The position numbers were made by a program. Shown here one piece after another: positions 63,001 through 64,000 of a DNA stretch of 64,000 nt. The stretch is taken from the NCBI RefSeq assembly GCF_030013205.1, contig NZ_CP122648.1; one strand, 5' to 3'. How positions within the stretch are numbered: the stretch's first letter is position 1; each line of letters starts with the position of its first letter. This DNA is from Escherichia coli. GTDB taxonomy: Bacteria > Pseudomonadota > Gammaproteobacteria > Enterobacterales > Enterobacteriaceae.

Positions 63001-64000
63001 TGTGTTTGCGCTCTCAACCAAAGGTGCAACCAGTACTGCGGCAAAATATCTGGCACAAACCCAGAACGCCTCGGACTTGATTGGTGGCGTGAGCAAAAGC
63101 GGTGACCGCTATGTCGACCACACCATGTTCGATATGGTGCAGTCGCTGACCATTGCCGACAGCCTGAAGTTTGGTAAAGCGGTGCTGAATAAGCTCGGGA
63201 AAATCAACAAGCTGCATAAAAATCAAGTTGAACAGGCCGGGTTTGCCGTACTAAAGGCACCAGATATTCCCTCCATTCTGGTCGAAACGGCGTTTATCAG
63301 TAACGTTGAGGAAGAACGTAAACTGAAAACGGCGACTTTCCAGCAGGAAGTTGCGGAGTCTATTCTTGCGGGGATTAAAGCGTATTTTGCCGATGGGGCG
63401 ACGCTGGCGAGAAGGGGATGATAAAAAGGCGCTGAATGGCGCTTTTTTTATGGGAGAACAGAAACAAAAAAACACCCGTTAGGGTGTTCAATAATTGGTT
63501 GCGGGGGCCGGATTTGAACCGACGACCTTCGGGTTATGAGCCCGACGAGCTACCAGGCTGCTCCACCCCGCGTCACCGTACTGCTTTATTTCATCAAATT
63601 TGATTGGTTGCGGGGGCCGGATTTGAACCGACGACCTTCGGGTTATGAGCCCGACGAGCTACCAGGCTGCTCCACCCCGCGTCACCGTACTGCTTTACTT
63701 CATCAAATTTTAATTGGTTGCGGGGGCCGGATTTGAACCGACGACCTTCGGGTTATGAGCCCGACGAGCTACCAGGCTGCTCCACCCCGCGTCCGTGGAT
63801 GCGCACTATACTCCGCTCGCGTTTTCATGCAACCTTTTTTTTACCCCGATCACGGATTCGGCATGATTTTGAACAAAAACAAATCACTAAAGCCTATTTT
63901 TTGTGCAAAATTTGCGTCAGGGAGAGGCTGCTCATTTCATTAAACGCGGCGGTTTGTTATCTTCGTTGCGCCTTATTTTTTAACCTGAAGAAGAGAACAA

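Follow-up and report, generated by a model that had tools for sequence, protein, structure and literature searches.

Three tandem tRNA genes lie near one end of a 64,000-nucleotide stretch of Escherichia coli DNA (contig NZ_CP122648.1 of assembly GCF_030013205.1; this whole stretch is referred to here as the window), and they raise the question of which tRNA they encode, whether they are the known metZ-metW-metV (metZWV) operon, and how their copy number and their use as an integration site compare with those of other E. coli genomes. A reading of the sequence alone had taken them for identical initiator tRNA-fMet genes with near-identical spacers, had named them metZ-metW-metV, and had described the array as a substrate for copy-number change and a common integration target. 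On the evidence set out below, we are close to certain that the array is the E. coli metZWV operon, with three identical tandem tRNA-fMet1 genes.

Three identical tRNA genes on the minus strand

Across the whole 64 kb window, the sole tRNAs called by ARAGORN were three minus-strand tRNA-Met genes, each with its CAT anticodon at position 35 (confirmed by script). The Rfam tRNA family, RF00005, matched each of them well above its threshold (61.4 bits vs. a gathering score of 29, E = 1.7e-12). The genes and the spacers between them, in the order of transcription, are as follows.

63715-63791, minus: metZ, the promoter-proximal tRNA-fMet1 gene, 77 nt (ARAGORN, Rfam; annotated as tRNA-Met in the 100%-identical record NZ_CP042899)
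63682-63714, minus: metZ-metW spacer, 33 nt, ATTAAAATTTGATGAAGTAAAGCAGTACGGTGA (read from the sequence)
63605-63681, minus: metW, the second tRNA-fMet1 gene, identical to metZ (ARAGORN, Rfam, script)
63573-63604, minus: metW-metV spacer, 32 nt, ATCAAATTTGATGAAATAAAGCAGTACGGTGA (read from the sequence)
63496-63572, minus: metV, the third tRNA-fMet1 gene, identical to metZ and metW (ARAGORN, Rfam, script)

By script comparison metZ, metW and metV are identical at 77/77 nt, and each carries a genome-encoded CCA at its 3' end; three exact 77-nt copies cannot have arisen by chance. Successive genes start 109 and 110 bp apart, which gives a repeat unit of 109-110 bp (the repeat finder reported a 109-nt unit), and the metZ-metW and metW-metV spacers are two substitutions and one single-base indel apart. 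The placement of three tandem identical tRNA-fMet genes at 63496-63791 on the minus strand was thus base-exact by ARAGORN, Rfam and 77/77 identity, and the earlier description of near-identical spacers at about 109-bp spacing is borne out by the same measurements. Two plus-strand ORFs in this region (63536-63736 and 63755-63943), which run antisense over the tRNAs and the promoter, were judged spurious.

Position and flanks of the array

A 1001-bp query was 100% identical to E. coli CFSAN061763 (NZ_CP042899), where the annotated order is recB, recD, argA (opposite strand), amiC, three tRNA-Met genes, mltA, tcdA and csdE-csdA; the 1 kb query also matched 5425/5426 complete E. coli genomes at ≥95% identity. 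The array therefore lies between amiC and mltA, and the first base of mltA is the window's end. The metZWV operon was described at 63.5 min in K-12 (PMC3017606), and the knockout primers metZWVko_fp and metZWVko_rp of that study match the window at 63792-63827 and 63459-63495, respectively. The 36 nt directly upstream of metZ are tgaaaacgcgagcggagtatagtgcgcatccacgga, an exact match to the published primer that spans the -10 box, and the 37 nt directly downstream of metV are the reverse complement of cagaaacaaaaaaacacccgttagggtgttcaataat, the other published primer. Since the flanks match these primers, the minus-strand order is metZ (63715-63791), metW, metV (63496-63572), which refines the earlier account; its identification of the array as metZ-metW-metV agrees with the amiC-mltA position, the location downstream of recB-recD-argA, and the primer matches on both flanks.

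The K-12 operon has the same tRNA sequence in three copies and the same gene order, amiC / metV-metW-metZ / mltA, and it agrees with the window base for base in the promoter region, leader, first spacer and terminator. The differences from a K-12-like strain, with 99.1% identity over 1 kb, are confined to a second spacer of 32 nt in the window (…GAAATAAAGC…) vs. 33 nt (…GAAGTAAAAGC…), plus one substitution there, an A/T run in the amiC terminator that differs in length by 1 nt, and a few SNPs in the flanks, and none of them is expected to affect function. More widely, the metZ-metW spacer was identical in 7/7 multi-copy arrays read (the window and six other strains), and the metW-metV spacer varied among strains (the window vs. 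L007, L002 and L005) in both sequence and length, with variants of 32, 33 and 34 nt.

Two neighboring ORFs were longer than the coding sequences annotated in the identical record: argA (60605-62002, minus, 465 aa from TTG, vs. an annotated 1332-nt CDS) and amiC (62078-63421, plus, 447 aa, vs. an annotated 1254-nt CDS). In both cases the excess is a matter of start-codon choice only.

Identity elements of the initiator

The ARAGORN label 'tRNA-Met (cat)' pools initiator tRNA, elongator tRNA-Met and tRNA-Ile2(CAU), and the identity elements were therefore checked. C1 stands opposite A72 without a Watson-Crick pair (Rfam gave the terminal acceptor pair as non-canonical, and C1 was unpaired in the minimum free energy (MFE) fold). 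The anticodon stem has G29:C41, G30:C40 and G31:C39 adjoining the loop (MFE fold, script), A11:U24 forms the second D-stem pair (script), and the variable region, AAGGTC, places a G at position 46 (script). The MFE z-score of a single tRNA was -0.90, a value that is uninformative for so short and GC-rich a molecule (77 nt) and does not weigh against the cloverleaf. A purine 11:pyrimidine 24 pair, here A11:U24, is a defining feature of bacterial initiator tRNA. The three consecutive anticodon-stem G:C pairs are given as an initiator feature in PMC3017606 and PMC6393288, and their combination with C1xA72 is given as characteristic of bacterial initiators in PMC3017606 and PMC5389676. G46 marks tRNA-fMet1 (metZ, metW and metV), in distinction to the A46 of K-12 tRNA-fMet2 (metY) (PMC3017606). 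All of the features on which an initiator assignment would rest (C1xA72, three G:C anticodon-stem pairs, A11:U24 and the fMet1-type G46) are present, as the earlier initiator call implied. From the identity with the studied E. coli tRNA, we infer that these tRNAs would be formylated by Fmt and bound at the ribosomal P site in an IF2-dependent manner.

The fourth initiator tRNA gene of E. coli is metY, upstream of nusA-infB. It belongs to the same initiator class, and in E. coli B-type strains its sequence is identical (PMC3017606); it differs from the array in being a single gene at another locus, absent from the window by tRNA scan, and in carrying A46 rather than G46 in K-12.

Promoter, leader and terminator of the operon

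One promoter-like region and one terminator were seen at the array in the window, and the elements outside the tRNA genes are as follows.

63805-63832, minus: promoter region, TTGCAT (63832-63827), a 16-nt spacer and TATAGT (63810-63805) (sequence and PMC3017606)
63792-63804, minus: 5' leader, GCGCATCCACGGA, between the -10 box and the mature C1 (sequence)
63460-63489, minus: intrinsic terminator, GAACACCC-TAAC-GGGTGTTT followed by a T run, with an 8-bp stem (terminator scan)

Upstream of metZ the sequence runs AAAAAAAA-GG-TTGCAT-16 nt-TATAGT-GCGC-ATCCACGGA and then C1. TATAGT (63810-63805) is assigned as the -10 box, and the promoter placed, from the literature together with sequence identity, and TTGCAT (63832-63827) is likely the -35 hexamer; in K-12, promoter-down suppressor mutations were mapped to the metZWV -10 region (PMC3017606). 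A sigma-70 consensus scan of 63300-64000 called no promoter, because the -35 TTGCAT agrees with TTGACA at only 3/6 positions; this missed call was not read as absence, since the window contains an exact match to the metZWV -10 region as published. An 8-A tract lies at 63842-63835, upstream of the -35, and a GCGC discriminator follows the -10; an A tract and a GC-rich discriminator would be in keeping with the features usual at growth-rate-regulated stable-RNA promoters.

In two island-bearing strains, FDAARGOS_1292 (L005) and ST131 2017_APHA (L008), the promoter spacer differs from that of the window and K-12 by a natural G->A substitution at the equivalent of 63814, which lies 4 nt upstream of the -10 box; these strains read GCGAGCAGAGTATAGT instead of GCGAGCGGAGTATAGT. 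In K-12, the D4 mutation, a promoter-down G->A change, has been placed 'just upstream' of that box (PMC3017606).

The last bases of the leader, ACGGA, resemble the ACGGTGA with which both spacers close immediately ahead of C1, and the repeat finder extended a third repeat copy to 63821 at 80% identity. We infer that these ACGG(T)GA ends would abut the RNase P cleavage point. On the other side of the array, the terminator agrees in sequence with the published downstream primer. Rfam, run permissively over 62500-64000, returned only the three tRNAs and a sub-threshold match to Aggregatibacter sRNA 82 at 63421-63498 on the plus strand (28.3 bits vs. a gathering score of 51.4, E = 0.073); this match covers the back-to-back convergent amiC and metZWV terminators and was rejected as chance.

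Array size across complete genomes

Copy number was compared across a collection of 5,426 complete E. coli genomes, with its distribution taken from total place counts and two systematic samples of 60; throughout, the counts are of BLAST 'places', not curated genes, and the genomes are not independent evolutionary events. The 77-nt tRNA query gave 21174 places in 5425/5426 genomes (median 4 per genome, range 1-8), where the standard total of four initiator tRNA genes per genome is three in the array plus metY; in the systematic sample (n=60), 55 genomes had four copies, three had three, one had two and one had six. One of the 5,426 genomes was without any initiator tRNA match, at least one had a single copy in total, and four matches in the collection were on plasmids.

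The tandem arrangement itself was followed with a 113-nt junction query across metZ-spacer-metW (E ≤ 1e-30), which found the junction in 5194/5426 genomes (10305 places, median 2, maximum 5). Two junctions were found in 56 genomes of the systematic sample (n=60), one in three and three in one. By the same 113-nt query, ~232 genomes (4.3%) were without any tandem junction. The number of array genes implied is at most 10305 + 5194 + 232 = 15731 by the junction query vs. 21174 - 5425 = 15749 by the tRNA query, and the two totals agree if nearly all junction-less genomes carry a one-copy array. Mean array size, from the place counts, is ~2.9, and three copies is the majority state in the complete genomes sampled. 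The cross-strain comparison that had been proposed alongside the earlier reading has thus been run, with mostly three copies and ~4% of genomes without a tandem junction as its outcome.

Four arrays of other sizes, all at the same locus, were read directly.

1 copy: N18-04097 (L004), island-free
1 copy: ST131 2017_APHA (L008), island-bearing
2 copies: 2013C-4830 (L003)
5 copies: PRO_A-1420-6M-A_ESBL (L002)

Arrays of one, two, three and five copies at the one locus support the view that the array is a substrate for copy-number change. The one-copy state occurs in two different backgrounds, which means at least two separate origins. In the two-copy array it is spacer 1 that is retained, and the spacers of the five-copy array (L002:2501-3019) alternate 33/34/33/34 nt (A-B-A-B), a pattern that suggests duplication of a two-unit block; both spacer patterns are the expected product of in-register unequal recombination. 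The maximum of five junctions per genome corresponds to a six-copy array or to several arrays. The strain d1-58 (L009, NZ_CP187961) had three junction places vs. two junctions in the array adjoining mltA; a further tandem tRNA-fMet junction must lie elsewhere in its chromosome, possibly at the far end of its island.

Laboratory work has tied metZWV dosage to the fidelity of initiation and to sensitivity to cold (PMC3017606). We think it unlikely, if worth stating, that natural contraction to one copy and expansion to five or more are recurrent and selected, tuning the supply of initiator tRNA and, through it, start-codon and initiator fidelity in particular E. coli lineages rather than being neutral recombination noise.

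The 3' end of metV as an integration site

A query running from amiC to mltA was covered at ≥80% in one place in only 3461/5425 genomes; in the remaining genomes the match breaks at query positions 488-510, equivalent to window 63487-63509, the metV 3' end. Accordingly, ~36% of complete E. coli genomes are interrupted there, and a type VI secretion system (T6SS) island was found at metV in the genomes inspected (FDAARGOS_1292, Ecol_AZ155, ST131 2017_APHA and d1-58), which upholds the description of metV as a common integration target. In FDAARGOS_1292, metV is followed by tssB, tssC, tssK, tssL, hcp, tssH and more T6SS genes instead of amiC, and in Ecol_AZ155 the amiC side adjoins the other end of the T6SS cluster. 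These observations sit alongside published work in which metV ranks with the E. coli tDNAs that are targeted most often (PMC7545054) and a T6SS cluster is located in PAI-CFT073-metV (PMC2660368).

63493-63509, no strand assigned: island attachment core, unoccupied, AATTGGTTGCGGGGGCC (the final 14 nt of metV and the 3 nt that follow the gene)

Junction alignment placed AATTGGTTGCGGGGGCC at both T6SS island junctions in island-bearing strains, with GGCCCCCGCAACCA(ATT) duplicated at the amiC-side junction. Such a repeat of the putative attachment core at both ends is the classic footprint of site-specific integration at a tRNA 3' end. The attachment site of the metV T6SS island, as of PAI-CFT073-metV, is the metV 3' end, and its core AATTGGTTGCGGGGGCC is intact in the window; unlike in island-bearing strains, the island itself is absent. 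No occupancy of the site was seen in the window, where amiC adjoins metV without interruption, as it does in strains that lack the island.

The third tRNA of d1-58 (L009:1684-1760), which is adjacent to the island, carries C->T at nt 69, inside the attachment core, where it changes the acceptor-stem G5:C pair to G:U. This variant is probably the island's own tRNA 3' end left by integration, and it shows that 'metV' in a strain carrying the island need not have the same sequence as metZ and metW.

Alternative readings

The shared CAT anticodon leaves room for the reading that the three CAU genes are elongator tRNA-Met or tRNA-Ile2, in which the CAU is modified to lysidine, and the ARAGORN label by its nature does not separate the three classes. 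The joint presence of C1xA72, the three G:C pairs and A11:U24, which together define bacterial initiators, and the primer-exact flanks of a published metZWV locus both speak against it; elongator tRNA-Met and tRNA-Ile2(CAU) were both ruled out by the identity elements, and we give this reading almost no chance of being right. The triplication could also be an assembly artefact or a recent duplication specific to this strain, given that tandem repeats can be mis-assembled and that copy number does vary among genomes. However, 55/60 sampled genomes have four initiator tRNA genes and 56/60 have two junctions, the 330-bp array is shorter than a typical read pair, and the two spacers differ so that the units can be told apart, and we hold this account to be just as close to negligible.

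It may further be asked whether the window's array sits inside or beside an integrated mobile element or its remnant, as the frequency with which metV is an island target, and with which E. coli genomes are interrupted there (~36%), might lead one to expect. Against this, the metV and amiC terminators directly abut, an arrangement shared with K-12-like strains and others free of the island, window alignment found no second copy of the attachment core between amiC and metV, and there is no other tRNA gene anywhere in the 64 kb window; an element or remnant at this site is accordingly very improbable. The reading as an uninterrupted metZWV operon is the one we retain, and nothing that we observed contradicts it.

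Proposed operation of the locus

Taken together with the literature, the arrangement would operate as follows. Transcription of the array would run leftward (minus strand) from one promoter at ~63805-63832 and end at the intrinsic terminator at 63460-63489. In line with the processing known from the literature, the primary transcript would be cut into three mature 77-nt tRNAs bearing the genome-encoded CCA, as in K-12, where metZWV gives one transcript that is processed to three initiator tRNAs and where the tRNA level tracks gene copy number (PMC3017606). The tRNAs would be charged with methionine, formylated and delivered to the ribosomal P site, whereupon translation would begin, with metZWV predicted to supply most of the initiator tRNA of the cell and the unlinked metY the rest. 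As near-perfect direct repeats, the 109-110 bp units would allow the array to expand or contract by unequal homologous recombination, and in many strains the metV 3' end also serves as the attachment site for a genomic island.

Significance

The locus is one that has already been described throughout: the window has the standard three copies and an empty attachment site, and holds no new biology. For the window, the practical annotation is metZ, metW and metV, in the standard three copies and without the metV island. For the species, accessory genomes of E. coli can be typed with the metV 3' end as a landmark, since the inspected interrupted genomes carry the T6SS island and about a third of genomes are interrupted there. 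How much translation initiation a cell can sustain, and how accurately, depends on initiator tRNA dosage; when metZWV expression is lowered in K-12, non-initiator tRNAs start translation and the cells are cold-sensitive (PMC3017606).
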